A stretch of 64,000 nucleotides of DNA from an uncultured Bacteroidales bacterium (GCA_937949745.1 CALECM010000113.1:1665-65664); one strand, 5' to 3'; positions 47,294 through 64,000 are shown, counted from the stretch's first letter. The notes: a model not told the origin generated them from the letters alone. Numbers and translations: made by a program.

Positions 47294-47366
47294 CGGGGTG
47301 TGGCGCAGTTGGTAGCGCGCTACGTTCGGGACGTAGAGGCCGCAAGTTCGAGTCTTGTCACCCCGA
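47294..47366 (+). tRNA. tRNA-Pro (CGG anticodon)
   Basis: CGGGGTG/CACCCCG acceptor stem, GCGC D stem, CTACG-TTCGGGA-CGTAG anticodon arm, GCAAG-TTCGAGT-CTTGT T arm, discriminator A. 73 nt. Confidence 0.92.
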
Positions 47367-47471
47367 CACTATAAGTGTTTGATTTACAGAGCGTTACAAG
47401 CGCTCGGTGAACTTTTTTAGAAAGATTAGAAAGTTTTTAATCCTTAACATGCGAATAACCAAAAAGTTAAA

Positions 47472-48614
47472 ATGGTTATATCGCTAAAAAAAATTTTTTC
47501 CACACCGAAACTACATAAAGGAAAAGCATGGTATATACTTTATTCATACCGTGATCCGATTTCCCAAACAATGCATGCCTTTAAGATTACTAAAGGCTTG
47601 AATGTTGGGAATGAGGATCAAAGAATGAGAAATGCCCAAAGAATTATTGCCAATCTCACTAAAAAGCTTGAAAATGGTTGGTCTCCATTCGAAGAAAGAT
47701 TTGGAAAAAAGAATTTATCCAGTCCCAATAATTGGATAAATGCTATTTCTGATTTTTTAAGATTTAAGGCAACTGAAAATATCGAGGAACGTTCGTTTAT
47801 TGAATATAGCTATAAATTGAATAAATTTATAAAGTTCATTAAAGAAAAGAAGTGGGATAAACTAAATGTTTCTTTGTTCACTTATGAGCATGCCTTAGAG
47901 TTTATGGAATGGCTAAAGGCGAATGGCTGTCGTTCTGGAAAGACTCTCAAAGAATATAAAAGCATAATGGGTCAAGTTTGTAATCATCTTAGGAAAAAAC
48001 AGCTAATCACCCAAAATTTCTTTGAATTATTGCCGCATTATAAATATATCAGTAATACCCCACGCCTATTTTCCGATAAAGAACTTCAAGAATTAAAAAA
48101 TTATGCTCTCCAATGCGACCGGCAACTATGGATTATATTTCAGTTTATTCTATATTGCTTTTTTCGACCGGGTCGAGAAGTCCGATTAATGAGAGTTGGG
48201 GACATTGATTATGAAAAAGGAATACTGTGGAGCCGAAAAGATACAGCAAAAAATGATAAGGAAAAACCGGTGATTATTCCGGATCATTTTTTAAAATATT
48301 TAATCCAAAACGGATATCATAAAGCCAATAAAGAGGATTTTATGTTCACTGTTGAGGGAAAACCGGGAAGTATTCCTGTTGGGAAAAACTACATATATAA
48401 GCATTATAAAAAAGCAAGATTAGCATTAGGCATAAACACATATATTTACGCCGCTAAACATACCGGTAACCGTAAATTAAAGGACAATGGAGCCGATTTA
48501 CTTGATATGATGAAACAAAATCGACATTCATCACCCAACCAAACTTATGTTTATTTGAAATCATTGGAGGATGAATATAACATGGCTTTAAAAGATAAAT
48601 TCTTTACTGTTTAG
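47472..48614 (+). CDS. tyrosine-type site-specific integrase
   Basis: 380 aa. Arg-I (FRPGREVRLMRVGDID), HxxR (KHTGNRKL), second His (NRHSS) and catalytic Tyr (NQTYVYL). Confidence 0.9.
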   Translation: MVISLKKIFSTPKLHKGKAWYILYSYRDPISQTMHAFKITKGLNVGNEDQRMRNAQRIIANLTKKLENGWSPFEERFGKKNLSSPNNWINAISDFLRFKATENIEERSFIEYSYKLNKFIKFIKEKKWDKLNVSLFTYEHALEFMEWLKANGCRSGKTLKEYKSIMGQVCNHLRKKQLITQNFFELLPHYKYISNTPRLFSDKELQELKNYALQCDRQLWIIFQFILYCFFRPGREVRLMRVGDIDYEKGILWSRKDTAKNDKEKPVIIPDHFLKYLIQNGYHKANKEDFMFTVEGKPGSIPVGKNYIYKHYKKARLALGINTYIYAAKHTGNRKLKDNGADLLDMMKQNRHSSPNQTYVYLKSLEDEYNMALKDKFFTV

Positions 48615-49506
48615 ATGCTGATTTTTTGCCACTGTTCACAACATATACTTTTTTATTAGGCTTTTCATTCATTTTCCGGGAAACAATAGTAATAAATGTA
48701 TCCATGGCAGGCAATACCCTTTCAAAATCTCTTTTACATAAATAAGTACTGGATTCATATTTTGATTTCATCAAAAATGGATTTTTCAGATTCATGAAAT
48801 TTAATTTATAAGCCACATATTGCTCGAAAAAGCGAGCCCAAATTTCATTTCTTGATCGCCAATAATCACCCGATTTAGCTTTAATTAGCCTCTGATAACT
48901 CTCTGATAACATTTTCCCGTCCATAATAATGGAGTCAACAATTCCGTTTGCCAAAGTTCTAAGTTGACTACCTCTATTGTCTTTTAATTTTCGAGCCGTT
49001 GAACTTCCTCCAACCAATGATCGGTAATTTCTATTTTGATCAATATACGTCCCAAAGAAATAATCCACAGCATGCCCATACTCATGCGCCAATGAATTAT
49101 CTCCACTATTTTTTGTAAGATTTATCATAAACGTGGATGGTTCAAAATGGGCTTTTGCCCCTGACATACCCCTGGCACCGAAAGCTAAGCCAATAGTGCC
49201 ATCCATTCCTAAATTAGTGGATCGCATTACTTTCGACAAATCCCGTAGTGAAATGGCTGCAGCATGTAATTTGTCTGATCTATCATTGTTTGATAGCCAG
49301 TTCCCCCACTCAAAGCCTTTTAAATTATAAAGCTTTAAAATCTCATATTGATCGAGAGGTTTCTGTGGAGATATAGTTTTCGGTAGTTTTGAAGTAATAC
49401 CTTTTGAAGATTTTTGCACTACACCTCTAATACTCCAATAGCGATCAGCACGGCCTCCCGTGCTGATATCCGGATTTGAATCTACTATTTTCTTTTGTTT
49501 TTGCAT
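48604..49506 (-). CDS. zincin-like metallopeptidase-fold protein (HExxH), resembling polyvalent-protein LPD1-type domains
   Basis: 300 aa. GFEWGNWLS, GLAFGARGMSGAKAHFEP, LAHEYGHAVDYF. Last gene of the minus-strand array. Confidence 0.6.
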   Translation of the reverse strand: MQKQKKIVDSNPDISTGGRADRYWSIRGVVQKSSKGITSKLPKTISPQKPLDQYEILKLYNLKGFEWGNWLSNNDRSDKLHAAAISLRDLSKVMRSTNLGMDGTIGLAFGARGMSGAKAHFEPSTFMINLTKNSGDNSLAHEYGHAVDYFFGTYIDQNRNYRSLVGGSSTARKLKDNRGSQLRTLANGIVDSIIMDGKMLSESYQRLIKAKSGDYWRSRNEIWARFFEQYVAYKLNFMNLKNPFLMKSKYESSTYLCKRDFERVLPAMDTFITIVSRKMNEKPNKKVYVVNSGKKSASKQ

Positions 49507-49613
49507 GATTTAACTTTTTTAGATGATTTAGTAAGGGTAGTCTTGTTAGGTTTGCGAGAACTCAAATTTTTCTCATGTTTTGATAAATTGGCTATTGGTT
49601 TTTTGATATTCAT
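49485..49613 (-). CDS. small highly basic protein (42 aa), hypothetical
   Basis: Manual translation MNIKKPIANLSKHEKNLSSRKPNKTTLTKSSKKVKSCKNKRK*. Below the ORF-track cutoff. Overlaps the next gene start by 22 nt. Confidence 0.3.
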   Translation of the reverse strand: MNIKKPIANLSKHEKNLSSRKPNKTTLTKSSKKVKSCKNKRK

Positions 49614-49629
49614 GGTTTTTGGGATTTAC

Positions 49630-49770
49630 TTATTTTTTCTTGTAACTCTTTCCGGCCTTTTTCATGGCAGTTTGCCATTTCATACCCGGATTGTTTTTGC
49701 GGATCCTTTTCGCTTCGCTTGTAATTTGTTTGCCCATAGCGGACATTTGTTTTTTAGTCAGTTTTGCCAT
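49630..49770 (-). CDS. small highly basic protein (46 aa), hypothetical
   Basis: Manual translation MAKLTKKQMSAMGKQITSEAKRIRKNNPGMKWQTAMKKAGKSYKKK*. Overlaps the upstream gene end by 17 nt, as other genes in the array do. Confidence 0.4.
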   Translation of the reverse strand: MAKLTKKQMSAMGKQITSEAKRIRKNNPGMKWQTAMKKAGKSYKKK

Positions 49771-50206
49771 TTTTATTTGTTTTATATTTGATAATTAAGA
49801 TAATGCCATAAATAACCCCGCCTATTATGATGAGTATTAAAATGGTTTCCAGGTGATCCCAGAATGTTTTTTTCGATTCTATTATCGGTTTTGGAACTTC
49901 AACCGGTATATATTCTGTTATAGTGTCTGCAGGTAGATGAATAAAAACTTTCAGTGTGTCAAGTTGCCGAATAATAACAACATCTCCCCTATTATCCGTA
50001 ATTGTAAGCGTATCAGTGTCTCCTTTGGAAAATACAAAAACTGTGTCAACGTGATATTCAGGAATTGTATAGGTATAGGGAATATCTTTTGTTGTGAATA
50101 GATCCGGACATTTATATGATAAACGGTACATTTGTTTTTCGCAGCTGCAACCGGAGAAAATTAAGGTAAATAATAAGAAAATGAAACACCTGGTTATTTT
50201 ATCCAT
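49754..50206 (-). CDS. lipoprotein with C-terminal TM helix, hypothetical
   Basis: 150 aa. Lipobox IFSGC. C-terminal ILILIIIGGVIYGIILII. Confidence 0.6.
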   Translation of the reverse strand: MDKITRCFIFLLFTLIFSGCSCEKQMYRLSYKCPDLFTTKDIPYTYTIPEYHVDTVFVFSKGDTDTLTITDNRGDVVIIRQLDTLKVFIHLPADTITEYIPVEVPKPIIESKKTFWDHLETILILIIIGGVIYGIILIIKYKTNKNGKTD

Positions 50207-50522
50207 TTTTCAATTGTTTTTCAAGACGGTCGTAACTATTTTTCAATGAGTCATATTTACTGCTTAAATCATAGATTTTCTGTTGCAATCCTTCATTTTC
50301 CTGTCTTAACTGGTTGGTTTCAATGACATAGTTTACTACCCGCCCATTAAGGTCACGTATTATTTTATCGTAAGCATCAACCTTTTTAACAATGGTTTCT
50401 ATTTCCGCAGCCCCTGCAGTAGCTGCTTCCTTTCTACGGGAATATTTAAAAGTAAAAAGCCAGGTTATAAATGACATTACAACCGCTATGGGTAGTGTTT
50501 TTAAAAACTCTATGATATCCAT
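50199..50522 (-). CDS. N-terminally anchored coiled-coil protein, hypothetical
   Basis: 107 aa. One TM helix, then heptad-rich sequence. Confidence 0.55.
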   Translation of the reverse strand: MDIIEFLKTLPIAVVMSFITWLFTFKYSRRKEAATAGAAEIETIVKKVDAYDKIIRDLNGRVVNYVIETNQLRQENEGLQQKIYDLSSKYDSLKNSYDRLEKQLKNG

Positions 50523-50524
50523 AA

Positions 50525-51205
50525 TTAAAATCCTTCCGGAACTCCCTTTTTAATGTATTGTTGCATTACTTCTTCGTCTGACAGTACTTGGAAACAGGTG
50601 AGTTGTGACAACTTACCTACAAAGCCATTAGCAGAACCCTTATTCCATATTCCAATTCCCACGTACGGTTGGCCATAATTTGAAATGTAATTATCCAAAT
50701 TAGTATTGGCCATTGTATTTTCAGCTTTTAATACTCCATTGATATATATTTTAGTGGTGTATGTCCCATCATCATTTTTAATGGTTGTGACTGTTTCAAA
50801 AGTCTTAATATTAAGGGGTAGAATGGAATTTATTGATAACATTCTTTCACCAACCTGATTCACATAGGTAATTAGTTTATCATGCGCAAGCATTAACGTC
50901 CAATAAGTATCATTCGAATGCGAAGAGTTCATAAATGAAAATTGATTACCAACTGTGTTGATTCTTGTGTGATATGCGGAAATGGTGTAATCTGAAATAG
51001 GCAACGGTTGATTATATCCTACTCCCATATTTGCTGCATTACTTGATAAATAAAGTTCACCCCCGGAAATAATTCCACTACCTTCATAATACAGGGAGTA
51101 ATCACCACCGGCGACATATTTAGGATATTTATCATCCGTTAATGGTGCGTAAAAAATCAATTTTGAATTTTCCTGATGGTGTTTATCGTAATTACGCCTT
51201 AACAT
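50525..51205 (-). CDS. LamG / concanavalin-A-like lectin-fold protein (candidate receptor-binding protein)
   Basis: 226 aa. LIFYAPLTDD start, TKIYINGVL, and terminal FVGKLSQLTCFQVLSDEEVMQQY resembling the Laminin_G_3 C-terminal signature. Confidence 0.6.
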   Translation of the reverse strand: MLRRNYDKHHQENSKLIFYAPLTDDKYPKYVAGGDYSLYYEGSGIISGGELYLSSNAANMGVGYNQPLPISDYTISAYHTRINTVGNQFSFMNSSHSNDTYWTLMLAHDKLITYVNQVGERMLSINSILPLNIKTFETVTTIKNDDGTYTTKIYINGVLKAENTMANTNLDNYISNYGQPYVGIGIWNKGSANGFVGKLSQLTCFQVLSDEEVMQQYIKKGVPEGF

Positions 51206-51666
51206 TATCCGATAGTGTTAAAATTATTACTCATTTCAATTTCCCTGATTTCTTCAATGGTATTTGCCGCCTGGATTAATCCTTTGAGCCTATAAAAATC
51301 ATTTCTCAGCATCTCCCCGATTCTTTTGTATTCGGATAAGACTTCGGTTGCTGTGGGTGTAGTTTGGCTGTCATACACACCGGAAATAACATTAAATACT
51401 TTATAATCGGGAATAATCTCTGACATTCTCGCCTGTGACATCATGGATAGCCTTTCAATTGCCTGCAATTTAATTTCTGAAATATCGGGCGCGGATGTAT
51501 TTCGCAGCTCCATATTTAAAATTTCAGCATAGGAAGCTTCCGGATGGTTGGTATAGAAATCAATCTGATCGGCCGATAACGGCACAAACAAATTGGCCGG
51601 AATATTGCTTATACCCGACTTAATAATTTGCTTCCTGGTTACATCAAAATACAATACTTTATTCAT
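51205..51666 (-). CDS. hypothetical protein
   Basis: 153 aa ORF overlapping its neighbours (1 nt and 8 nt). Confidence 0.55.
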   Translation of the reverse strand: MNKVLYFDVTRKQIIKSGISNIPANLFVPLSADQIDFYTNHPEASYAEILNMELRNTSAPDISEIKLQAIERLSMMSQARMSEIIPDYKVFNVISGVYDSQTTPTATEVLSEYKRIGEMLRNDFYRLKGLIQAANTIEEIREIEMSNNFNTIG

Positions 51667-52264
51667 AATATTTTAGTTCACGTGATGAAAGAAGGAGTAT
51701 CACACCTCCGAAACGATAAAAAGACACTTCAACAAATGTATTTTCCTTAATCAATAAGGTGGGGTATTCAAATTCGCTTTGGTATAACATGGCATCCTCT
51801 GCGGAAAAAATTATTTGCTTATCCTTTGAAGAATTAAAAAATATTACGGTAGATAGTACACCATCTTCTTTTTGAAGAATTTTTATGGTTCTTAAATCAT
51901 CCGCATTAACCAGTTCTATAATGTTGACCGTATCTTTGGAAACAGAAGGAATAAATGATATCGGACTTGCTTCGCTCTCCTGGATCACATTTATATCTCT
52001 CTTGGTTTGTGCCGATATTAATTCCTGCAATCCTTCTACATTGGTCGCTTTAGTCCTGGGTAGCAAAACATCAAAACCATTATCCGTTTTGATGTTGATG
52101 GTGATAAAATTATCTGATCCGCTTTTTTCTAATTTGAACCAGTAATCACCGGTTTTCATATCTACCGGCATATCCGGAGAAGTAATAATAACAGAACCTG
52201 CACCGGGTTTATCTTTTTCTTTTATATAGCGAAATCTATTGTCTAACTTCTTATTTAAAGCCAT
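51659..52264 (-). CDS. hypothetical beta-rich protein
   Basis: 201 aa, no TM helix. Candidate structural protein. Confidence 0.55.
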   Translation of the reverse strand: MALNKKLDNRFRYIKEKDKPGAGSVIITSPDMPVDMKTGDYWFKLEKSGSDNFITINIKTDNGFDVLLPRTKATNVEGLQELISAQTKRDINVIQESEASPISFIPSVSKDTVNIIELVNADDLRTIKILQKEDGVLSTVIFFNSSKDKQIIFSAEDAMLYQSEFEYPTLLIKENTFVEVSFYRFGGVILLLSSRELKYYE

Positions 52265-52344
52265 CTTATATTACTTTAGGTTTTCATAAATAACCCAACT
52301 TGAAAACAGAATACAGACCACTGCAGCGGTAATTTTAGCGTACT

Positions 52345-52821
52345 TCATAATGCTTTTTTTTTATCAAGTTCTTTCAGGTTGTATTTATTAATGATACTGA
52401 TCAATTTGCTTGCATAAGTCGGATCGGTGGCATAACCGGCCGACTGCAATGCGTATGCCTGATCTTCCGGCGTAATGGCTGATCTTACAGGCTGGTAGCG
52501 TTGCAAAGTCATTAGTAAGTGGCTATGATCCCGAATGGAATCAGATAATGTTTTATATACCCGGAATCCGTCAGTTATGGTTACATTTTTCCCGTTCAAA
52601 TATTCGCCGGTGGAAGCCCGGTATGTGGATCCGTCCCAGTATGGTGATATTTGACCGGTGGCCTTAATTCCGAAAAGATTGTTGGCGGGGCCAATTGTAC
52701 TTTTGCCGTAACCGGATTCAAGGGCGGCCTGTGCCGCTTTTACCGACGGCAATAGCGGGGTTCCATTGGTTGCAATAATAAATTCGGTAGAATACTTCTT
52801 GAAAAATTCCTGTGGTGTCAT
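52345..52821 (-). CDS. GH73 mannosyl-glycoprotein endo-beta-N-acetylglucosaminidase
   Basis: 158 aa. AAQAALESGYGKS (catalytic Glu), NNLFGIKA, FRVYKTLSDSIRDH. Confidence 0.85.
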   Translation of the reverse strand: MTPQEFFKKYSTEFIIATNGTPLLPSVKAAQAALESGYGKSTIGPANNLFGIKATGQISPYWDGSTYRASTGEYLNGKNVTITDGFRVYKTLSDSIRDHSHLLMTLQRYQPVRSAITPEDQAYALQSAGYATDPTYASKLISIINKYNLKELDKKKAL

Positions 52822-52988
52822 TAGCGTATTAGTTTTTTAGAGATTACAATTAAGAGGATACCGACCAGCAAGGCACCACCTAACAGGTAGGATATTGAAA
52901 TAAAGTCCAATGATATGGAGAACTGTAGAGCCTTATCCCCTTTCAGGATATCTAAAAAACCCCCGTTGTCATTATTTGTATTTGCCAT
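52821..52988 (-). CDS. small membrane protein (55 aa), holin-like candidate
   Basis: Manual translation MANTNNDNGGFLDILKGDKALQFSISLDFISISYLLGGALLVGILLIVISKKLIR*. Its stop overlaps the ATG of the glucosaminidase (TAATG). Confidence 0.45.
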   Translation of the reverse strand: MANTNNDNGGFLDILKGDKALQFSISLDFISISYLLGGALLVGILLIVISKKLIR

Positions 52989-52991
52989 AGT

Positions 52992-53360
52992 TTAAGCGTT
53001 TTGAATTTGGTTCATTTGAGTTGGCGTTAAGGAAATATAAGTCTTACCCTTTGTTATCTCCATTAATTTATCATACTGGCTTTTTTGCACTTTATTCAAC
53101 CCTAAAAACATCATCACGGCATCATGTGTGATAGGGCCAAATATGCCGTCCACGTTCATCTTGGATTCTGTGATAGGTGTGAGCGTATTTAAGGCCGTTT
53201 GAAGTGATTTAACGGCTGCTCCGGTCGTACCCACTTGTAAAGGGAAGTTGGTATCTGATCCGGGGGAACTGGCTTTATTCTTTTTTCTGTAAAGCACAAT
53301 CCCGATAGTAACCAGGATAACGGCCACGATAACAATAATTATAATCGTCTTTTTTTTCAT
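52992..53360 (-). CDS. membrane-anchored peptidoglycan-binding-domain protein
   Basis: 122 aa. N-terminal TM. PG_binding_1 signature GAAVKSLQTALN...VDGIFGPITHDAV. Confidence 0.75.
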   Translation of the reverse strand: MKKKTIIIIVIVAVILVTIGIVLYRKKNKASSPGSDTNFPLQVGTTGAAVKSLQTALNTLTPITESKMNVDGIFGPITHDAVMMFLGLNKVQKSQYDKLMEITKGKTYISLTPTQMNQIQNA

Positions 53361-53932
53361 GCCCTTACTTTTTGAAGGAGTTCATTATACTGCTTCTCGT
53401 TTATTTGGGAATTACCGGTTTCAGCGCGTAAGGCTGTTTGTGTGCTTTCACCAAAAATGCCATCTACTTTAAGCGGAGTACCCCCATGGATGTATATATT
53501 TGCATTTAGCGCACTTTGGAGTGCTTTCACATTCTCCCCTTCAAATCCTTTACGGATAGGGAAAGAAGCAATTTTCTGTGAAGTACCGGTGAAGTATTTA
53601 GCCTGATATAACGGATTGTTATTTGCATTTGACCTTAAAGAATAAGTATCATTGAGTAAAAACTTTTCATCTACGTTTATTTTTGGCGTATCATCATCGG
53701 TTTTCTTTTGTATTGTGGCAGGTAAAGTAAGGGTTTTACTTACGGTTACATTATTTTTGAGAAAGGTTTTAAGTTTATCCTCTCTGATGGATGTATTACT
53801 ATTTGTATCCCCTTCCTTATTTTCCTGGTCTTCCTGGATTGATTCATTTTCCGTCCCCTTCTTTTTCTTCCACTCTTTGTATAGAACAAAAGCAAGTATC
53901 GCAGCCAGTATGATTACTTTATTTTTTTTCAT
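53357..53932 (-). CDS. membrane-anchored peptidoglycan-binding-domain protein
   Basis: 191 aa. N-terminal TM. GENVKALQSALN...VDGIFGESTQTAL. Confidence 0.75.
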   Translation of the reverse strand: MKKNKVIILAAILAFVLYKEWKKKKGTENESIQEDQENKEGDTNSNTSIREDKLKTFLKNNVTVSKTLTLPATIQKKTDDDTPKINVDEKFLLNDTYSLRSNANNNPLYQAKYFTGTSQKIASFPIRKGFEGENVKALQSALNANIYIHGGTPLKVDGIFGESTQTALRAETGNSQINEKQYNELLQKVRA

Positions 53933-53936
53933 GGAT

Positions 53937-54395: not shown

Positions 54396-54397
54396 TA

Positions 54398-54966: not shown

Positions 54967-54968
54967 TG

Positions 54969-55498: not shown

Positions 55499-56107
55499 TT
55501 ATCTCATTTTACAAAGGATACGGATGGTTGCAACCAGGATGCAGGCTAACAGGAAATTACTATACGAAAAGTAATATTTACCAAACAATGTAAATCCACT
55601 TCCTTTAAGTGAATTTTCTTCAGTTATATTCATTTCCATATCGGTCACATAGTTTTTTCCTTTCGTTACAAAGGATGATCCTTGGAGTGATTTTTTCATT
55701 TTCATATTTTTTATTCCTAAATGTTTTAATTCTTCAATGGCTTTTGGATTATTATTTTCGGTAGCATCTATTTGCAATGCTTCAATATATAAGTGTTTAA
55801 GCCTGTGAGCGTTTATAATACCTACTTTGTATAATGCTTTAATTGTTTTTTTGAGGGAACCGGGATGTGTTCCATATACTTTCCTGAGTGCGTAAGCATC
55901 AGCGACCTGTTCGCTATCTGTCTGTAACTTGTAATGGCCTCTTTCATGTTCTATGATAAACTGTTTTTCAAAATCTGTAAATTTGTCCCATACACTGGTG
56001 TTTATTTCAATTACACCATCATACATATTGATAGCTGCGGGACATGCGCCCAATTCTTTCGCAGTGACATGGACAAATTCACCCACATTATTACTTTTTA
56101 AATGCAA
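55499..56107 (-). CDS. putative HExxH metallopeptidase-like protein with C-terminal TM helix
   Basis: 202 aa. FIIEHERGHYKL (HExxH). C-terminal FLLACILVATIRILC. Confidence 0.55.
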   Translation of the reverse strand: MHLKSNNVGEFVHVTAKELGACPAAINMYDGVIEINTSVWDKFTDFEKQFIIEHERGHYKLQTDSEQVADAYALRKVYGTHPGSLKKTIKALYKVGIINAHRLKHLYIEALQIDATENNNPKAIEELKHLGIKNMKMKKSLQGSSFVTKGKNYVTDMEMNITEENSLKGSGFTLFGKYYFSYSNFLLACILVATIRILCKMR

Positions 56108-56357
56108 ACACCATAACCACGACCAAAACCACTACAACCCCACCAATGGCCACATATAAGCCTGTTTTGTTGTTGCCGCTATCAGGATTAGAGTAATAGA
56201 TATTGGTATCCGGATTCGTTCCCTTTATAGAACCAATCATATTTGCAATGCCCGACAACACACCACCGGCACCGGTGACAATAGTATTAATTAACCCTGT
56301 ATTGTCCTTAGCAGAATTTACCGCAGCCTCTTCCGCATAATTTTTCTTTTTCTTCAT
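56091..56357 (-). CDS. tail-anchored Gly-rich small membrane protein
   Basis: 88 aa. TGAGGVLSGIANMIGSIKG. C-terminal LYVAIGGVVVVLVVVMVFAFKK. Confidence 0.6.
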   Translation of the reverse strand: MKKKKNYAEEAAVNSAKDNTGLINTIVTGAGGVLSGIANMIGSIKGTNPDTNIYYSNPDSGNNKTGLYVAIGGVVVVLVVVMVFAFKK

Positions 56358-56438: not shown

Positions 56439-57086
56439 TTATTCTTCGAAGTAAAGTATGAATTTCATGGTACAAGTGGAGGGTATAGTAACGATCCACA
56501 ATAAAGTGTCGCTTAATTCCAGTCCGGTTTCCTTGAATAGTAAATCTATGCGGTCGCTCTGATACTGATAGCGGTCAAAGAAATTGGACAAATCCAAAGT
56601 TTGCTGCTTATTCTTATCAAATGGATTGAGTTCGGTAATTTCCATATCCGTGTCAAAAGCCGTCTGATCGTTTGAAACGATGGTCATCTTCTTCAAAACA
56701 GAGGGGTTCGTTTTGATGTATTCCCTTAGATTCATTATGCTGTAATCAGGGTTACCCGGTTTCATTGCGATGGTGCTTTTTGTACCTTCTACTATTGCTT
56801 CCTCATCAGCCAGAACACAATCGACATTGAATCCTGCCCTTTTTAATGATTTAGGACTTGAATTGATTTTTGTTATGGTAACATCGCTGTTATCGAGTTT
56901 TGCAATATAATCATCTGTACTAAGGTAACCGGGTATAATTGCCACTTTACGGGCGTTCTGATCGTTGTTTTGAATTTCAAATTGAAATTTGGGACTAAGT
57001 GCCGAAGCTATATTTTCATTCATGTTTCCTGTGAATTTATTGGTTAAAACTTTTCTTGATCGCTTTATAATTTCCTGTTGTGTCAT
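56439..57086 (-). CDS. soluble beta-rich protein, candidate major structural (capsid) protein
   Basis: 215 aa, no TM helix. First sizeable gene after the internal promoter and bracketed by terminators. No sequence motif recognised. Confidence 0.55.
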   Translation of the reverse strand: MTQQEIIKRSRKVLTNKFTGNMNENIASALSPKFQFEIQNNDQNARKVAIIPGYLSTDDYIAKLDNSDVTITKINSSPKSLKRAGFNVDCVLADEEAIVEGTKSTIAMKPGNPDYSIMNLREYIKTNPSVLKKMTIVSNDQTAFDTDMEITELNPFDKNKQQTLDLSNFFDRYQYQSDRIDLLFKETGLELSDTLLWIVTIPSTCTMKFILYFEE

Positions 57087-57089
57087 TTT

Positions 57090-57209: not shown

Positions 57210-57253
57210 TCTTTGCTGATTTTATTTTTTATGGTTTAAGTGAAATCGTGACA

Positions 57254-57261
57254 CAAAAGTA
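57254..57261 (-). promoter_or_regulatory. internal -7 promoter box (TACTTTTG on minus strand) for the structural/membrane module
   Basis: Plus strand reads CAAAAGTA, 45 nt upstream of the ATG at 57209 and downstream of the terminator at 57377-57406. Confidence 0.4.
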
Positions 57262-57376
57262 TAATGGTAAAAATCAGTGATGTAGGGAATTGCAACCAAT
57301 TGCAGGTTTTTGCAGTTTTTTGTTTTACTTTGTGGATTATTGCGTATTTATATGCATGGATATCCACCGGTAGGAT

Positions 57377-57406
57377 AAAAAAAATCCGGCACAATAGGCG
57401 CCGGAT
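57377..57406 (-). terminator. rho-independent terminator ending the ATPase operon
   Basis: The minus strand reads ATCCGGC-GCCTATTGT-GCCGGAT followed by TTTTTTTT, 29 nt after the stop at 57435. Confidence 0.65.
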
Positions 57407-57434
57407 CCTAATCAAAAAATATATTAATAAACAT

Positions 57435-57632
57435 TTATCCCGGTTCCCCGAGATGCTCAATTATGCGATGTATCTGTGGTATATGGATGTAATTACCCGT
57501 TCGGTTTTCCAATATATCTTTTAAGGTCTCACATTTAAGCCAATTGGTGAAAGTGCGTACATCGACCCTGTAAGCACTGGCCAACTCCGACAAAGTGCGG
57601 GGAGAATTACTTAATTTTTCGTTGCTGTTCAT
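57435..57632 (-). CDS. small HTH DNA-binding protein (DUF4248-like)
   Basis: 65 aa. TLSELASAYRVDVRTFTNWL helix-turn-helix. C-terminal HLGEPG, as recalled for DUF4248. Confidence 0.55.
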   Translation of the reverse strand: MNSNEKLSNSPRTLSELASAYRVDVRTFTNWLKCETLKDILENRTGNYIHIPQIHRIIEHLGEPG

Positions 57633-58209
57633 AGGTAGCCTTTATTTGAACGTCAAGTAAAATAATCTCATAATAGTAGGGATCGCCATTGAGAACCTTG
57701 TTTCTTATCCTCTCCTGGGCGGTGGTGATCTTTGTATATAATTCCGGGATCAGTTCTTTTTTCCGCTGGGTAAAATTTTCCACTGAATTAAACAGGATAA
57801 GCCATGAGGCGAAAGTAAAGCACTTTGGCGGTAATTGCCGGAGTCCGTGCGCTATAATATATACGTCGATTCCGAATTGCCGCCGCCGTATCCATATATA
57901 TTGTAATATGTCGGGCGTTTGCTCATCGAGATAGGCCATTGCATCATCGAGCAATAACGCCCCTCCGGAGTAATTTTCCTTGATCATTTTGAGGGTGTCT
58001 TTACCGGTATACACAACCCGCCCTACTCCATTTAAAGTTCGAATATCCGAAGCGGAAAGTTCCGGAAAATTACGCCATTCTGCGGAATCAGGAGTAACAA
58101 TGATTGCCTTCTTAAATTTTGGTAAGACATGGTCACGGAGGAAAGTGGTTTTTCCGGTGCCATTAATACCTACAACCAAATTAAGTTCTGCCTTACGCTG
58201 CATCGCCAT
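57607..58209 (-). CDS. P-loop NTPase (candidate A32/FtsK-HerA-like packaging ATPase or Zot-like morphogenesis ATPase)
   Basis: 200 aa. Walker A GINGTGKTT at residues 14-22. Walker B ALLLDDA. Downstream RRRQFGIDVYIIAHGLRQLP block. Confidence 0.75.
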   Translation of the reverse strand: MAMQRKAELNLVVGINGTGKTTFLRDHVLPKFKKAIIVTPDSAEWRNFPELSASDIRTLNGVGRVVYTGKDTLKMIKENYSGGALLLDDAMAYLDEQTPDILQYIWIRRRQFGIDVYIIAHGLRQLPPKCFTFASWLILFNSVENFTQRKKELIPELYTKITTAQERIRNKVLNGDPYYYEIILLDVQIKATYEQQRKIK

Positions 58210-58702
58210 TCTGTTTTAACCGTTCGTTTTCCTTGCGTAATTCTTCCAGCTCGGAATTTTGATTCCGGTTCATCATCGCCATAGTAACTTTAGCTCCGTA
58301 TATAGTCAACATACTTGTAATAAGGATACCACCGGGTGACATTTGAAATGAAGTCGTTTGTAAATATTTAGCCCATGCGGCAATTAATGTTTCCCGTTCA
58401 TTTTGATCCAGTTTGATATCTTCCTTATCGGTTCCTTTGATAAATATAACCAATACTAAAGGCAAAACCACATCCATTAGGGATACAATGATTTCGGCTG
58501 TAGGCTCGTTTAGCTGGATCATGTTTAATTCATGTCTTACCTGTTTACTGGTCACATATTCTACCGGTTCGGATTCTGTTTCCGTATCTATGAAATCCGG
58601 GATTTCCGGAACCGGTTCGGGGGTTTCATAATCCTGGATCGAGGCATTGCGGCTCTCGAACCACAAAGAAGCATCATCTATTAATTTATTTTGCATGGCC
58701 AA
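58193..58702 (-). CDS. acidic N-terminus / two-TM membrane protein, hypothetical
   Basis: 169 aa. Hydrophobic segments IIVSLMDVVLPLVLVIFI and GGILITSMLTIYGAKV. Overlaps the ATPase gene by 17 nt. Confidence 0.55.
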   Translation of the reverse strand: MAMQNKLIDDASLWFESRNASIQDYETPEPVPEIPDFIDTETESEPVEYVTSKQVRHELNMIQLNEPTAEIIVSLMDVVLPLVLVIFIKGTDKEDIKLDQNERETLIAAWAKYLQTTSFQMSPGGILITSMLTIYGAKVTMAMMNRNQNSELEELRKENERLKQNGDAA

Positions 58703-58970
58703 GTAATGTTTTTATCGCTTCAATTAGCGGTTGACGGTTTTTAACTTTCGTGACATAATAATTCTTTATATCATGGTTATACCCCATGCCAATAACCGAT
58801 AAATAAACTTTACCGTTTTTTTCGACAGTACAGATAGCGGCGTTCTTATGCTCATCATCTTCCAGGGGATAACTTGACAGGAATTTTTCAAATACCGGGG
58901 TTATTTTATCATCCGTAAGTTGCTTTTCTGCAATCGGTATGATCATTTTAAGTAAACTATCGCTTAACAT
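58686..58970 (-). CDS. hypothetical protein
   Basis: 94 aa ORF overlapping both neighbours. Confidence 0.5.
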   Translation of the reverse strand: MLSDSLLKMIIPIAEKQLTDDKITPVFEKFLSSYPLEDDEHKNAAICTVEKNGKVYLSVIGMGYNHDIKNYYVTKVKNRQPLIEAIKTLLGHAK

Positions 58971-59557
58971 TGGATGATACTTTTAAATTCTCTTACTGCG
59001 GAATCAGGCACAGCATCCATATTACCGTTTACACTACCCATTTCAAACCGGTTATGGATAAAGTAATTGATTACATCATGAATACTCCACTCCTGTTCCC
59101 GTTTTCTTCCTTCCCGATCAGCAACATATTGAAGCAATAATAAATTTAGTGGATCAAATTGTATTACTTTACAGTTTTCCGGTAGTTTACCTTTTTCTAT
59201 GAGCTGGGAGTTTTCTGCTTTCAGGCGAGTGTTTTCATCCTGTAAACGCATGATTTCCCCTGTGTCACTTTCCGTTTTTCCTTCTAAAGCTGTAAGTTTG
59301 TCAACTAAATCCGCTGTTTTTAATTCATTTTCAACTATTTTTTGATTTAGTTTCTCGATTAAATCAGCATTTTCTTTAAGTTTTTTTGCATAGTCCTGAT
59401 TATTTTTAACAGGCCTGTGCTGTTGCTCTAAAATAGTTTCGACAAATTCGGTTGCAGTTGGGGCTCCAATACTTTGCTGAAATTCTTCAAATTCAGCATA
59501 AACATCAGGAGTAAGCCGTAAAGACTTTATTTTTACCGCTTTGCTTTTTTCTTCCAT
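58964..59557 (-). CDS. ribbon-helix-helix-like N-terminus + coiled-coil protein (candidate regulator/iteron binder)
   Basis: 197 aa. IKSLRLTPDVYAEFEEFQQSIGAPTATEFVETIL resembles an RHH fold, followed by a long heptad region. First gene downstream of the iteron region. Confidence 0.5.
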   Translation of the reverse strand: MEEKSKAVKIKSLRLTPDVYAEFEEFQQSIGAPTATEFVETILEQQHRPVKNNQDYAKKLKENADLIEKLNQKIVENELKTADLVDKLTALEGKTESDTGEIMRLQDENTRLKAENSQLIEKGKLPENCKVIQFDPLNLLLLQYVADREGRKREQEWSIHDVINYFIHNRFEMGSVNGNMDAVPDSAVREFKSIIQC

Positions 59558-59843
59558 GTTTTTTTTCTTTTTATTTGTTTAACATTCTTTTTTTGAATAT
59601 GGTGATTGGAATAGCTTCCATAAGCATAATAAATAGGATTGGTTAATACTGGATTTAGAAAATCGGAGTAAAAAAATCTATCATAATTTTGTATTAATTC
59701 CATTAGTCATTTATTATATTGAACTTCAAATAAATAAACATAAATTTTCAATTGTTTTCATGATGATTACTAATTACAAATCCATGAATACAAATACAAA
59801 AATATAATAAAAATCTGTTTGAAAATCAAGTACATGCATTTCG

Positions 59844-59879
59844 TTACGGCAGGATTGTAATATTACAACTCCGCCGTAA
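59844..59879. repeat. 36-nt near-perfect inverted repeat (cruciform/hairpin)
   Basis: TTACGGCAGGATTGTAATATTACAACTCCGCCGTAA. Outer 9-bp arms with a 1-nt bulge. The inner TTGTAATATTACAA is a perfect palindrome. Confidence 0.7.
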
Positions 59880-59930
59880 TTTTATACATTAAAATAACAA
59901 CCAACCCCTGGGTGATAATGCCAAAATTTT

Positions 59931-60260
59931 AGTGCTTTTAGTGCTTGAGTGCTACTGTTTTTGGATGTATTGATTCTAAATAAGTTACAAAATTTTAGTG
60001 CGATTAGTGCTAAAGAGTGCTAAAAGAGTGCTTATAAAAAATGGCGGATTTTACTTAGAGAAATAAGTACTTTTTCAATTTAGTGCTTTTAGTGCGCACT
60101 AAAGCACTCTTTTTTATATTATTTTAGGAAGGTCTATTAAAAATAATAAAAAGAAAATATATAAGGTATTATATATAAGCCCGTTGTGGATTTCTGATTT
60201 TTGACTTAAGCACCATTTTTTTAATTCCCGGTAAAAGGGGGTGCGGGGGAAAAGAGTGCT
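59931..60260. repeat. iteron cluster: at least 10 direct and 2 inverted copies of AGTGC(T/G)
   Basis: Direct copies start at 59931, 59940, 59948, 59997, 60006, 60016, 60027, 60082, 60091 and 60255. Inverted copies lie at 60096-60100 and 60103-60108. Extended forms are TTTAGTGCT and AAAGAGTGCT. The 10-nt palindrome AGTGCGCACT is at 60091-60100. Confidence 0.75.
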
Positions 60261-60284
60261 AAGGGGGATATTCCATTAAAAGGT

Positions 60285-60318
60285 AAAAATTACTTTTCAT
60301 AAATTCAAAGTAATTTTT
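60285..60318. repeat. perfect 12-bp AT-rich hairpin
   Basis: AAAAATTACTTT-TCATAAATTC-AAAGTAATTTTT. Confidence 0.6.
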
Positions 60319-60365
60319 GGATGTTTTATATATTTTAATGGCTAAGAATCGAATATTTGAAATCA

Positions 60366-60610
60366 GACAAGCCCATACATACGTATAGGCCTGTCACAAC
60401 GAAATAGTTTTAATCTCCTAACTGTTGCAAATAAAAAGGGTGCAACACTCCCTTAGCTTACTCATCTGCAGGCTCTGGTAAGCCCGGAATTAAAATAAGG
60501 AAAGGTAAGTCCGCACCCTATAGGGTTGCAAACTAATCTTTAGACCTATTATTCTTAATTCCTAAATTTACCAGATTTGCAGATAGAATAATAGTCTATG
60601 ACTAATTACA
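60366..60610 (-). ncRNA. candidate structured non-coding RNA (speculative)
   Basis: About 245 nt with no ORF and at least 5 stem-loops (60366-60395, 60424-60446, 60470-60485, 60513-60529, 60541-60598). A minus-oriented -7 box (plus strand CAAATATA, 60614-60621) sits just upstream. Confidence 0.25.
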
Positions 60611-60652
60611 GTGCAAATATATAATTAATACTTTATAATTCATATTGTTTTG

Positions 60653-60660
60653 TATTTTTG
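60653..60660 (+). promoter_or_regulatory. -7 promoter box TATTTTTG abutting the ATG at 60665 (possible leaderless transcript)
   Basis: Matches TAnnTTTG and ends 4 nt before the ATG of the only plus-strand gene inside the element apart from the integrase. Confidence 0.35.
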
Positions 60661-60664
60661 CGCC

Positions 60665-60859
60665 ATGAAAAAACCTTTTGGAAGTGAGTTGGCTGAATCC
60701 CAAAAATTGGCATTTGATATGCTTAATGAGGAAGATCAAATAAGAGATCGCCATGAAGCCGCAAAGCACCGTAACAGAATATTTATAATTAGTTTCCTGG
60801 CTCTTATTATTTCAATTATAAGCCTTATCATAAGTATAATTATATGGCTGACATCTTGA
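60665..60859 (+). CDS. small tail-anchored membrane protein, hypothetical
   Basis: 64 aa from MKKPFGSEL. C-terminal IFIISFLALIISIISLIISIIIWL. Opposite orientation to the surrounding genes. Confidence 0.5.
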   Translation: MKKPFGSELAESQKLAFDMLNEEDQIRDRHEAAKHRNRIFIISFLALIISIISLIISIIIWLTS

Positions 60860-60860
60860 T

Positions 60861-61598
60861 CTAATAGTTGTCACAAAATATTCCACATTCCCAATTTTTA
60901 ATTTTGCCCCCGACCGCGTCCGGCGGCAATTCATCCAAAAATATCCTTTTTCCCTTATACTTTACCAGTTTGCAACCTATTTCTCTGCTTTGTACCGCCC
61001 TCATAATGAATACTTCTGGAAAATCTACTCTTACCATATTCCAGTAAGTTGGGCTCTCAGATTTAATGCAACCTATACAATTGGCATTAGGATACAATAA
61101 TTCATATATTTTTGGGAGTTTTATACCCGCTCTTCTAAGGATTGAAAAACAATCTTCCTTAGTTATTAACTCACTGCATAGTAATGGAATTACATCAGCC
61201 CTTTCCCTTTGCATGAAATTTTTTTGGCGTTTCCATTCATCCACAGTAAACCCTAAAATATGATAATCAATTCTATGTATAATTTCAAAGTGATACCTGG
61301 CTTCTCGTTTTAATAATCTTGTACAAACAGCCCCCTGCACTCCGCTCATATATCTTTCCCTTTCAAATACATCTACAATGGAGCAAGACGGATATTTTGG
61401 GTTTTTCGCCTCTATTATCGAGTGTTGGATATATTCTTCCACATCTTTTAAAAAACGACGATTGTCAGGATGCTCTTCTGTGACTGGGTTATTTACGACC
61501 AATATGTTATAATCTTTTTTGAATTTATCTATTGTTAGTTTGGCGGCTATCGCTGATGCTGCACCACATGAAAACCAAACAGCTATTGTTTTTTTCAT
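60861..61598 (-). CDS. PAPS-reductase-family (PP-loop ATP pyrophosphatase-like) protein
   Basis: 245 aa. Degenerate PP-loop AVWFSCGAAS, VCTRLLKRE, LGFTVDEWKRQ, NCIGC, and C-terminal ECGIFC (compare the CysH ECGLH motif). Confidence 0.7.
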   Translation of the reverse strand: MKKTIAVWFSCGAASAIAAKLTIDKFKKDYNILVVNNPVTEEHPDNRRFLKDVEEYIQHSIIEAKNPKYPSCSIVDVFERERYMSGVQGAVCTRLLKREARYHFEIIHRIDYHILGFTVDEWKRQKNFMQRERADVIPLLCSELITKEDCFSILRRAGIKLPKIYELLYPNANCIGCIKSESPTYWNMVRVDFPEVFIMRAVQSREIGCKLVKYKGKRIFLDELPPDAVGGKIKNWECGIFCDNY

Positions 61599-61633
61599 CT
61601 CGGGTATTTATTTCTTTAGTTTTAAAAATAAGG

Positions 61634-64000
61634 TTATTGTTCCGCATCAAAATGTTGGTTGGCGATTGTAATGTATTCTGTTCCGCTTGTTTTGTCATGA
61701 CCTGGCTTTGAACTGTCCAATGTCTGTATAGGATTTAATCGAAAACCGTAATAACGGCAATAACAGATCAATTTTTTCCAAAATCTTTGTGGGGAACAGT
61801 ATTTCTTTTCCCTTGGATTTTTTTCGTAAAAATTATCTTGCAATTCCCCACGAATCAGGCGGGTGTTAAGTCTTTCTAAATTATGCTCGTGATTTTCTTC
61901 GGTAACGCCCAAATAATCGCTTAACCAACCGAAAAACACTTCTCCCATCTCCTGGCGTGCCTGCCGGCGTTCTAAACTATCGCATGGAGCTGCGATAAGT
62001 CCGGAATGATTAATACCCCAACCGTTTTTTGCAGCGAGAAAATACAGTTCCAAACATTCTGCCATAAAGTTATAGAACAGATTCCACTGTGATTCATCCC
62101 ATTCGGTAAAGAAGCTTTTTCCGAAGTATTCGAAGGGCTTAAAGTCATCGTCAAAAAAGTCAGAAAAAGCCAGTTTAAATTGCCTGTCGGTATAGGAGGT
62201 TGTGGATCCGTTCAACATGTGGTTAGTGGTCAGGTAGATTTTAGGCACATCATTGCCTTTCAGAGTGTATTTGATAGCCCCCTTTCCCTCTATTGTCATC
62301 ATGCCGACGATAATGGTATAAAGCAAATTGAAATCAAAATTAACCCTTACATCATCGATGAACATGTTTTCCGTCTTCCGGTTGACTTCCTGCCAAATGA
62401 AGCGATCGTGTTCCATGTCCGGCCGTTTTCCATCGATATATACCTGGTTCTTTACATAAGATAAGGCAAATCCTAAAAGTGATTTCCCTGTACGCCCGAA
62501 AGCCTCCCCTACTTCACTGATTTTGGCATCCATTCCAATCATTGCTTTCTCACAGTTTTTATCACGGTATTTATGGAGTAAATAACCGATTGCTGTCATT
62601 TTACTAATGAAATGTAAGGACACATCATTTAAATCCTCCGCTTTTATTTTTACGTTATTTCGCCGGCGATTATCGTCGTGGTATTCCGCCCAGCTGTGAA
62701 AAGAAGTAACCCATAGAAAATTGGCAAAATCGCATTGCCGTCCGGTGGCTGTAAATTGGACGTCATAAACCGGAAGATCGCCGATAGTTTCCCCTGTTTT
62801 GTTTACCTTAATAAGGCGGTCAAGGCGTTTAGCATCATAATGTTTAAGCTGTTCCGCCCAAACATTACCGTTTAACTCATTGAGTGATTTTTCTTCAATT
62901 CCTTCTGCCGATATCCGCCAGTATTTTTCTTTGAAGAATAAATATTCTACTGTCTTCTCCGGAGGGAAAAAACTTGGCTCGAAAAAAGCAATCTGATTAA
63001 TCTTTTCGGGGCCGAAATACTGGGATGAACCCTGAATCAACATGTTTTGTACTTCCTTATCAAATATTTCCTCCGCTAATTCCATTGCGTAATCACGGGC
63101 TTCCGTATGATCCTTTAATACCCGGATTATATTATTTTCAACCCGTATCAATTCATTTGGCCGGTCATCGTTGCGCAACCGATAAAACCCCCTATTACGG
63201 AAGAATTTTTTCATGTTCACGTAATCGAATTTCAGTTCTCTTTCTATGTCCCCGTTTTTTTTGTTACGGAATACCTCGAAAAAGAATTTTTCATCATCCA
63301 TTAATGGTTGAGCAAGTTCAATTTCATCATCCTTAAATCTCCATTTATTCCGGCCATAGGTAAATTCACACATGTTTTTAAGAGTGTCAAAATGATAATC
63401 ACAAAACTGTTTTTTATCATTCAATAGCCAAATATCTTTGAGTTTTAAGTCACTTATGGTTGAAATTTTAAAGAGTTCAAAATATTCGCAGCTTTGCGGA
63501 TCATCTTCGACTATGGAATTGATTTCCCGATCGAGTGCATTACGGTAATTTTCTTCTTTACCTGCAAGCGAACCGGCCAATAGGTCATCAATTCCTTTTT
63601 CATTTCCTTTACCACCTATCAGGTATAATTCAAGGTATATACCCCTATTCACTAAAGTTTGAAACCAGTCCCGGAAATTTTTAACGGCATAAAAAAACAA
63701 ACGGGAACGCTCGGTAATATCTTTTTCAGCACTGATATTTTTTGATAACTCCCTGAAATCACTATCCAGGACAAAAAATACTTCCTTAACCCCGCAACTC
63801 TCTATTACCCGTACAACGCTTTCCGGAAATGATTTTTCTTTACCTACGAGTGCATTTATGCCAGGCATACCAAAGGCCGGCATACCATGCTTACACATCT
63901 TTTCCGCTTTCTTTTCGCCTTCGGTAAAAAATAAGCGTTTTGTTTGGTGGTTTTCCCGGTAAATTTTTCTTATAGTTTCAGGAATAAATAGTGTGATCGA
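61634..64000 (-). CDS. Toprim primase / SF3 (P4/D5-like) helicase fusion, 5' end beyond the window
   Basis: The frame is open from 63898 to the window edge (…RLFFTEGEKKAEKMCKHG, Toprim Glu). GNEKGIDDLL (DxD). Walker A GEAFGRTGKSLL. Walker B-like MFIDDV. Confidence 0.8.
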   Translation of the reverse strand, partial: SITLFIPETIRKIYRENHQTKRLFFTEGEKKAEKMCKHGMPAFGMPGINALVGKEKSFPESVVRVIESCGVKEVFFVLDSDFRELSKNISAEKDITERSRLFFYAVKNFRDWFQTLVNRGIYLELYLIGGKGNEKGIDDLLAGSLAGKEENYRNALDREINSIVEDDPQSCEYFELFKISTISDLKLKDIWLLNDKKQFCDYHFDTLKNMCEFTYGRNKWRFKDDEIELAQPLMDDEKFFFEVFRNKKNGDIERELKFDYVNMKKFFRNRGFYRLRNDDRPNELIRVENNIIRVLKDHTEARDYAMELAEEIFDKEVQNMLIQGSSQYFGPEKINQIAFFEPSFFPPEKTVEYLFFKEKYWRISAEGIEEKSLNELNGNVWAEQLKHYDAKRLDRLIKVNKTGETIGDLPVYDVQFTATGRQCDFANFLWVTSFHSWAEYHDDNRRRNNVKIKAEDLNDVSLHFISKMTAIGYLLHKYRDKNCEKAMIGMDAKISEVGEAFGRTGKSLLGFALSYVKNQVYIDGKRPDMEHDRFIWQEVNRKTENMFIDDVRVNFDFNLLYTIIVGMMTIEGKGAIKYTLKGNDVPKIYLTTNHMLNGSTTSYTDRQFKLAFSDFFDDDFKPFEYFGKSFFTEWDESQWNLFYNFMAECLELYFLAAKNGWGINHSGLIAAPCDSLERRQARQEMGEVFFGWLSDYLGVTEENHEHNLERLNTRLIRGELQDNFYEKNPREKKYCSPQRFWKKLICYCRYYGFRLNPIQTLDSSKPGHDKTSGTEYITIANQHFDAEQ

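Follow-up and report, generated by a model that had tools for sequence, protein, structure and literature searches.

A probable temperate tail-less virus integrated at tRNA-Pro in an uncultured Bacteroidales bacterium

Sphaerolipovirus-like viruses (the Thermus phages P23-77 and IN93; the haloarchaeal viruses SH1 and HHIV-2) have an internal membrane and two vertical single jelly-roll capsid proteins, with an A32-like ATPase encoded close upstream, and some are temperate. Capsid proteins of the Vinavirales type are double jelly-rolls of ~270 aa or more. Temperate corticoviral elements of the PM2 type, like other Vinavirales prophages, are small, integrated and tail-less, with a packaging ATPase, small membrane proteins and lysis genes (PMC5894146; PMC9502842). 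Replication modules are exchanged between relatives, and Proteobacteria and Verrucomicrobia are the reported hosts (PMC9502842). FLiP, a Flavobacterium phage (Finnlakeviridae), is the best-known lipid-containing tail-less lineage linked to Bacteroidota, and a FLiP-related group of Bacteroidetes elements combines a double jelly-roll capsid with a rolling-circle Rep and has no packaging ATPase (PMC5894146). Here we describe a 20,623-bp element integrated at tRNA-Pro(CGG) of an uncultured Bacteroidales bacterium (GCA_937949745.1, CALECM010000113.1:1665-65664; this whole 64,000-nt stretch is called the window below), which is likely to be a virus of the tail-less, packaging-ATPase kind. Bacteroidales are dominant in gut, rumen and digester communities, and to our knowledge the viruses described from them are, with few exceptions, tailed phages or small microviruses.

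The element has precise boundaries and an unoccupied counterpart. A first-pass annotation of the window had reported a tRNA-Pro(CGG) gene followed closely by a tyrosine integrase and had proposed a search for a downstream repeat of the tRNA 3′ end. The integrase gene starts 104 nt 3′ of the tRNA gene, and the search yielded a perfect second copy of the 27-bp tRNA end AAGTTCGAGTCTTGTCACCCCGACACT beyond the right edge of the window, which defines the full gene set at 47371–67993 (extended coordinates; Table 1). Extension relied on a 349,610-bp ENA contig, k141_114323, retrieved first with P0001, a candidate capsid protein described below, and then with a 245-aa PAPS-reductase-like protein. Window and contig differ at 1 of 13,140 compared bases, and this sole mismatch (window position 63370) lies inside the primase gene, which is still intact at 1004 aa. 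Two conspecific contigs from other samples (L039 and L040; samples ERR4571438 and SRR31120205), found through the host TonB-dependent receptor that adjoins tRNA-Pro, carry an attB site with one copy of the core, in which the left side of attL is joined exactly to the right side of attR. The repeat and the empty site therefore identify the element as a precise insertion, present in some conspecific strains and absent from others, and the perfection of the att sites together with the conspecific empty site indicates that the insertion is recent. Both marks of a tRNA-integrating temperate element are found: a tyrosine integrase beside a tRNA gene, the 3′ end of which recurs at the far end of the element, and an empty attB.

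The interior of the element is compact. From 48604 to the window end nearly all credible open reading frames (ORFs) lie on the minus strand, in a tightly packed operon with frequent overlaps of 1–26 nt, as the first-pass annotation had described, but its count of about 35 co-oriented ORFs was too high (28 gene calls in the window, 32 in the whole element). The lower GC content that it had called clear is real but modest (36.2% in the element versus 40.2% in the host flank). As had been stated, ORFs between 49.7 and 59.6 kb encode 226 aa at most, and no late ORF is longer apart from that of a 300-aa LPD1-domain protein, the largest of the late operon. A repressor gene faces the early replication operon, which is followed by the long late operon and then by the integrase; judged from gene order, this layout is that of a temperate virus. 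Perfect att sites, empty-site strains, intact and compact ORFs, and long-range conservation argue for a functional genome, and the region is probably a complete, recently mobile temperate tail-less virus genome (prophage).

The strongest single piece of evidence for this reading is the predicted structure of a 198-aa ATPase. We compared its AlphaFold2 model, built from 61 homologues (predicted local distance difference test, pLDDT, 89.2), with the PDB using Foldseek, and the 15 best matches were all the genome-packaging NTPase B204 of Sulfolobus turreted icosahedral virus (STIV) or STIV2 (Turriviridae). The best of these spans the full length (E 6e-9, template modeling score (TM) 0.71 under either normalisation, ~200 aligned columns), and the next ATPase folds are much weaker (Zot N-terminal domain TM 0.43–0.44, HerA 0.48, FtsK 0.47). 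The likeness to B204 and to the A32-like ATPases of Varidnaviria thus lies in the fold over the whole length and in the size of ~200 aa. In contrast, sequence identity to B204 is only 16–19%, the host is a member of the Bacteroidales rather than a crenarchaeon, and no double jelly-roll gene was detected here. Searches by sequence with the ATPase and its profile against PDB and Pfam returned generic P-loop or chance matches only, so that an FtsK-HerA ATPase of the A32/B204-like type, as expected of Varidnaviria/Bamfordvirae, is recognizable by fold and undetectable by sequence alone. Its Walker A motif reads GINGTGKT and its Walker B motif LLLDDA, and a conserved arginine-rich segment follows. 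The ATPase has more than 120 homologues (39–70% identity), which come from Bacteroidales genomes wherever an organism is named, and 42/61 family members match phrog_2666, a family in the head-and-packaging category. On the evidence of the model, the ATPase has the fold and size of packaging motors from membrane-containing viruses with jelly-roll capsids. A 167-aa membrane protein, whose gene overlaps the start of the ATPase gene and which is kept in all compared loci, may be the membrane partner of the ATPase at a packaging vertex.

The first-pass annotation had suggested comparing this protein with A32, PRD1 P9 and Zot, and the outcome is B204/A32-like and not Zot-like. This bears on a filamentous, inovirus-like phage, in which a Zot/pI-type ATPase would drive assembly and a small membrane protein would be the major coat. 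The numerous small single-pass membrane proteins fit such a phage, the Zot N-terminal domain is the second-best ATPase fold class (2r2a, E 5e-6), and a distant relative (L013) encodes a Rep_trans-like protein and a single-stranded DNA-binding protein (SSB). We nevertheless regard it as highly improbable, since the TM to Zot falls so far below that to B204, the ATPase has neither a membrane segment (hydropathy scan) nor a C-terminal domain, lysins are conserved, and the genomes measure 16.5–20.6 kb and encode a primase-helicase in most cases.

Tailed-phage genes could still have been present past 64 kb, as the first-pass annotation had pointed out. Pfam and PHROG scans of the whole att-bounded element revealed no portal, HK97-type capsid or tail gene and no terminase with a nuclease domain; the sole "terminase" match is that of the ATPase P-loop to phrog_2666. 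A tailed prophage was rejected on these grounds. A conjugative or mobilizable element was likewise rejected; the same scans revealed no gene for a relaxase or for conjugation, and there was no profile or fold match to conjugation or other non-viral machinery. A satellite resembling phage-inducible chromosomal islands was also considered and rejected.

The late genes are conserved as a module across many Bacteroidales loci. Our comparison covered the contexts of ATPase homologues, one locus from a metagenome-assembled genome, one IMG/VR contig and 23 metagenome loci, and used iterated hidden Markov model (HMM) searches. The block from ATPase to lysin is syntenic in over a dozen loci, including named Bacteroidales genomes (one of them Prevotellaceae) and metagenomes, among which is an activated-sludge assembly; further metagenome loci are, as we take it from their accession series, rumen, termite-gut and digester samples. 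The conserved order is a 197-aa coiled-coil protein, a 94-aa protein, the 167-aa membrane protein, the ATPase, a 65-aa protein, a ~40-aa membrane protein and a P0001-like protein, followed by small membrane proteins, an HExxH membrane protein, a 152-aa membrane protein, a peptidoglycan binder and a lysin of GH73, Phage_lysozyme or SLT type. Replication modules vary among these relatives: in place of the 1004-aa primase-helicase, some encode a DUF5906 protein or Rep_trans plus SSB. Two relatives consist of element genes only. L006 is a 17,133-bp contig that includes an integrase and whose first 23 bases equal its last 23, and L025 is a 16,500-bp contig that starts and finishes in one and the same 21-bp tandem repeat; by their contig ends alone, both are consistent with circular genomes of 16.5–17 kb. 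L025 also holds, at ~1230–1265, a tRNA T-arm-like fragment, GCGGGTTCGAGTCCCGC, without a whole tRNA, and no integrase was recognized in this contig. The fragment may be the attP core of a free circular genome.

A candidate major capsid protein lies within the conserved block. The first-pass annotation had named four ORFs as possible jelly-roll proteins, and just one of them, the 215-aa ORF at 56439–57086, is conserved; its product is a single beta-sandwich with only weak jelly-roll matches, and gene calling shortens it to 194 aa (P0001, pI 4.6). The other three (51659–52264, 51205–51666 and 50525–51205) are not conserved and are therefore more likely host-recognition proteins. P0001 is encoded downstream of the ATPase, with the 65-aa and 39-aa genes between them. 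HMMER searches of 1.84 billion representatives found 155 relatives at E ≤ 1e-3 (175–357 aa, 21–48% identity), and those with names are hypothetical proteins of Bacteroidales or Prevotellaceae. Its AlphaFold2 model is all-beta with 13 strands (pLDDT 95.4). The best, weak fold matches (E 3e-3 to 5e-2, TM 0.2–0.36, often over ~100 columns) are mostly single jelly-roll capsid proteins, such as those of cucumber mosaic virus, tomato aspermy virus and satellite tobacco mosaic virus and picorna-like VPs, and further jelly-rolls in the list include C1q and TNF domains, PRD1 P5 and the mavirus penton. From the model, the fold class is probably jelly-roll. P0001 is the one soluble beta protein present in every locus that covers its position, and insertions in its family are restricted to the N-terminus and two loops; its position, universal conservation and insertion pattern are the reasons for proposing a capsid role. 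Membrane segments occur in 11 proteins by a strict hydropathy scan, and ~3 more have weaker hydrophobic segments, so the earlier estimate of at least 12 single-pass membrane proteins was approximately right. These 11–14 small late membrane proteins fit an internal lipid membrane in the virion. Taken as one joint claim, we lean toward an icosahedral capsid with an internal membrane in which P0001 is the major capsid protein.

Several observations weigh against this picture of the virion and of the element. Foldseek finds no match to the P0001 model below E 1e-3 in PDB or BFVD, and the solved capsid proteins of sphaerolipoviruses, PM2, PRD1 and FLiP are not among its 50 best matches. A length of 194 aa leaves P0001 no room for a double jelly-roll, and aligning every element protein with its profile (hhalign) revealed no second capsid-like paralogue. 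Structure models cover two proteins only, the ATPase and P0001, so another gene could encode the capsid. Virus collections contain little of the family: IMG/VR has one distant contig (found with alignment queries; none with single proteins) and GenBank phages have none. Finally, decay seems to have reduced some relatives, L009 and L010 among them, to remnants.

The missing capsid match is relevant to a capsid-less pleomorphic virus of the plasmavirus or pleolipovirus kind, in which a host-derived membrane with viral spikes would bud from the cell and the ATPase would not serve packaging. The many small membrane proteins speak for such a virus as well, and genome size, integrase and small ORFs are compatible with it. 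We find it quite improbable all the same, because the ATPase fold is specifically that of a capsid-packaging NTPase, a conserved and well-folded beta-sandwich lies near the ATPase in every relative, and the conserved cassette, in which a holin-like protein is paired with a lysin of GH73 or lysozyme type, suggests lysis over budding. PHROG searches gave no match to spike or membrane families of Plasmaviridae or Pleolipoviridae. The first-pass annotation had preferred either an internal-membrane icosahedral or a capsid-less pleomorphic virus to Caudoviricetes; this is supported as regards Caudoviricetes, and of the two options the evidence points rather to the one with a capsid and a packaging ATPase.

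The remnants and the scarcity in virus-detection catalogues, which hold almost none of the family, point instead toward a non-viral or dependent element (a satellite, a cryptic or defective remnant, or an island with virus-derived genes) that makes no particles of its own. L009 (2367–6538) and L010 keep only the stretch from the 197-aa gene through the P0001-like gene, followed by a reverse 186-aa ORF, tRNA-Arg and host GrpE and DnaJ, and appear to be copies at another tRNA that have decayed or been truncated; L007 is without a replication module beside its late block. For the copy described here such an origin is unlikely, given its recent insertion at perfect att sites, the intactness and close packing of its every ORF, and the conservation of the whole late block although the ATPases of the loci share only about 40–70% identity. 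Element-only, circular-looking contigs exist, neither a relaxase nor a conjugation gene turned up, and matches to the defence-gene library (PADLOC) are limited to an orphan-type methylase and weak hits to SspD and AriA. A tail-less virus with a packaging ATPase remains our preferred reading.

This virus would operate in the manner of the temperate tail-less members of the PRD1/PM2/STIV and sphaerolipovirus assemblages. It would differ from each of the described systems. The family resembles the Vinavirales prophages in its integrated, tail-less form, packaging ATPase, small membrane proteins and lysis genes, and in combining exchangeable replication modules with a conserved morphogenesis block, a pattern reported for other tail-less prophages (PMC9502842); it differs from them in its Bacteroidales host, its larger genomes (16.5–20.6 kb) and the lack of a detectable double jelly-roll gene. 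Profile searches matched no gene to a Bamfordvirae double jelly-roll capsid protein, and P0001 is the sole conserved beta protein, with two proteins modeled. An A32-like ATPase close upstream of a small beta-sandwich candidate recalls the sphaerolipovirus-like viruses, and an internal membrane is plausible here too. Those viruses have two single jelly-rolls (the Helvetiavirae-type arrangement), whereas here one weakly jelly-roll-like candidate downstream of the ATPase has no detectable paralogue and is followed by genes for membrane proteins. Unlike the FLiP group, the family has a packaging ATPase, mostly a primase-helicase, and no detectable double jelly-roll gene.

We rate the element as representing a new group, of family rank or above, in a host order new for such viruses; its capsid candidate lacks a close structural relative. 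A bolder and tentative proposal, which we hold to be rather doubtful, is that it belongs to a new high-rank lineage of tail-less bacterial viruses with a membrane, specific to Bacteroidales, whose shell is built from one single beta-sandwich protein of ~180–250 aa and served by an A32/B204-like ATPase. If true, the double jelly-roll viruses and those with two single jelly-rolls would be joined by a third way of building a capsid, one that could be near the long-postulated ancestral state of that virus assemblage. Should P0001 form the shell, it would bear on how jelly-roll capsids became joined with A32-like packaging motors.

A life cycle can be proposed from these predictions. Upon induction the element would be excised as a circle and replicated from an iteron-rich gap by its own primase-helicase. 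A capsid, with P0001 as the shell protein, would assemble around a membrane vesicle bearing the small membrane proteins, and the ATPase, seated on the 167-aa membrane protein at a single vertex, would pump DNA in. Variable LamG, 201-aa and 153-aa proteins would form the receptor-binding vertices, and the GH73 lysin and peptidoglycan binders could act in both entry and lysis.

Database searches returned few related sequences. Megablast of the element against GenBank phages gave no match, and neither did tblastn of the ATPase and P0001 against GenBank phages or of the ATPase against plasmids (PLSDB). A scan of genome contigs returned one locus and was otherwise dominated by a generic P-loop pattern, and a word-indexed protein search found only P0001 itself with the single sequence and 6 proteins with its profile. 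By sequence, a PHROG scan with 80 aligned P0001 relatives matched no annotated family, and the P0001 profile had only P-loop or chance matches in PDB. A full-text literature search found no description of such elements in Bacteroidales. With one distant contig in IMG/VR and none among GenBank phages, the family escapes current virome catalogues, which thus overlook a class of lysogeny, lysis and gene flow in Bacteroidales.

Table 1. Features of the element and its insertion site, in window coordinates unless marked as extended
Feature	Position	Strand	Basis or remark
tRNA-Pro(CGG), integration target	47294..47367	+	ARAGORN; Rfam tRNA, 67 bits
attL core, 27-bp direct repeat AAGTTCGAGTCTTGTCACCCCGACACT, tRNA-Pro 3′ end	47344..47370	.	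exact repeat
Tyrosine integrase, 380 aa	47472..48614	+	phrog_1 E 1.7e-28; Pfam Phage_integrase and SAM-like just under cut-offs
LPD1-domain protein, 300 aa, HExxH motif AHEYGH	48604..49506	-	Pfam LPD1 E 7e-11; phrog_616 E 9e-23
Two very basic proteins, 42 and 46 aa, pI 11	49485..49770	-	translation, pI
150-aa protein (signal/lipoprotein-like N-terminus, C-terminal membrane segment) and 107-aa coiled-coil protein (hydrophobic N-terminus)	49754..50522	-	hydropathy
Variable block: LamG-fold 226 aa, 153 aa, 201 aa	50525..52264	-	Laminin_G_3 E 2.7e-7
LamG protein	50525..51205	-	Laminin_G_3
GH73 N-acetylglucosaminidase (lysin), 158 aa	52345..52821	-	Pfam Glucosaminidase E 5.9e-31; PHROG endolysin E 2.6e-50
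Single-pass membrane protein, 55 aa, holin-like	52821..52988	-	directly upstream of lysin; segment residues 30-48
Two membrane-anchored peptidoglycan-binding proteins, 122 and 191 aa	52992..53932 (52992-53360, 53357-53932)	-	PG_binding_1 E 5e-5, 7e-6; N-terminal hydrophobic segments
Four single-pass membrane proteins, 152, 79, 110 and 175 aa	53937..55496	-	Kyte-Doolittle 2.4-3.4
Core protein, 195 aa, HExxH motif HERGH, C-terminal hydrophobic tail	55499..56086	-	translation
88-aa protein, C-terminal membrane anchor	56091..56357	-	hydropathy; kept in relatives
P0001, candidate major capsid protein, 194 aa, all-beta	56439..57023	-	AlphaFold2, conservation
Membrane protein, 39 aa	57090..57209	-	just upstream of P0001; segment residues 4-22; kept in at least 7 loci
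65-aa protein	57435..57632	-	overlaps ATPase gene end; kept in all nine matrix loci; no Pfam match
Predicted genome-packaging ATPase, 198 aa, B204/A32-like FtsK-HerA class	57607..58203	-	AlphaFold2 and Foldseek
Membrane protein, 167 aa	58193..58696	-	overlaps ATPase gene start; membrane segment residues 68-86 and second hydrophobic stretch
First late-block genes: 56 aa, 197 aa (coiled-coil), 94 aa	58686..59703	-	197-aa and 94-aa proteins kept in most loci
AT-rich gap, 1.16 kb, no credible gene, iteron-like AGCACT/AGTGCT cluster	59704..60860	.	motif count
PAPS-reductase-like protein, 245 aa	60861..61598	-	phrog_424 E 1.1e-36
Primase-helicase, 1004 aa, cut by window end	61634..64000, to extended 64648	-	Zn_ribbon_DnaG E 1.5e-18, DUF3854, phrog_28855
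Two small ORFs, C5 DNA methylase, 87-aa ORF (early operon)	beyond window, after primase-helicase		gene calls, profiles
CI-like repressor, HTH_3 protein, 149 aa	far end	opposite strand	matches phage repressor families
51-aa ORF and 183-aa EGF-like protein	extended 67157-67886 (L002 3713-4442)	repressor strand	just inside attR; EGF-like E 3.7e-7
attR, second copy of AAGTTCGAGTCTTGTCACCCCGACACT	extended 67967-67993, outside window	.	perfect match in extended contig

The remaining late genes include lysis functions and a variable block. Profile searches confirmed the GH73 enzyme, the two peptidoglycan-binding proteins, the LamG protein and the P-loop ATPase that the first-pass annotation had listed. 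The 55-aa protein upstream of the lysin is holin-like, and it is kept beside the lysin in L006 and L007. None of the variable-block proteins (LamG, 153 aa and 201 aa) has a homologue in any related locus, where the counterpart position holds 298–332-aa and 914-aa proteins, one with short tail-fibre-like matches; the block is thus a candidate source of vertex or receptor-binding proteins. The LPD1 protein matches phrog_4529 ("minor head protein and DNA pilot") weakly and may be an internal or ejected virion protein. By sequence against PDB, the 201-aa, LamG and LPD1 proteins gave chance-level matches only. The 42-aa and 46-aa basic proteins are possibly DNA-associated. Homologues of the 150-aa/107-aa pair are found in L006, L013, L025 and L030, those of the 195-aa core protein in L003, L005, L006, L007, L011, L014, L025, L030, L035 and L036, and the 152-aa membrane protein recurs in eight to ten of the related loci.

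A slot at 57210–57434, flanked by the 65-aa gene on one side and by the genes for the 39-aa protein and the capsid candidate on the other, is empty in this element. The same slot is occupied by genes for helix-turn-helix (HTH) and HicA-toxin-like proteins in L003/L004 (10993–11744) and L007 (10955–11356), and it looks like a hot spot for insertion of accessory genes. In L014 a similar HTH/HicA-like pair lies at 5193–6335, upstream of the late block.

The early region carries the replication gene and a putative control region. The primase-helicase that the first-pass annotation had recognized is cut short by the window end; the full protein combines a DnaG zinc ribbon and DUF3854 with the Walker A motif GRTGKS. 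It shares 37% identity across 98% of its length with a protein of MT835542.1, an unannotated 40.8-kb "Bacteriophage sp." from human faeces. More distant relatives occur in phages of Bacteroides, Porphyromonas and Polaribacter, so the element seems to share its replication module with phages of Bacteroidota. In the AT-rich gap, 9 of the 21 AGCACT/AGTGCT copies in 71.6 kb fall within 59931–60255, and a 24-nt repeat is present three times. AGCACT-type clusters also lie just downstream of the primase gene in L003 (~6987), L005 (~6674) and L014 (~7876). The gap is a candidate origin or late-control/operator region. At the far end, the 51-aa and EGF-like ORFs on the repressor strand may be accessory genes expressed during lysogeny.

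An Rfam scan found no RNA besides the tRNA. The host sequence encodes SusC-like receptors and proteins sorted by the type IX secretion system (T9SS), which places the host in Bacteroidota. Elsewhere in the window, a stretch of lower GC content (7352–10784, 35–37%) adjoins tRNA-Met (6912–6986), and no integrase was seen in it; it encodes two proteins with C-terminal T9SS sorting domains.

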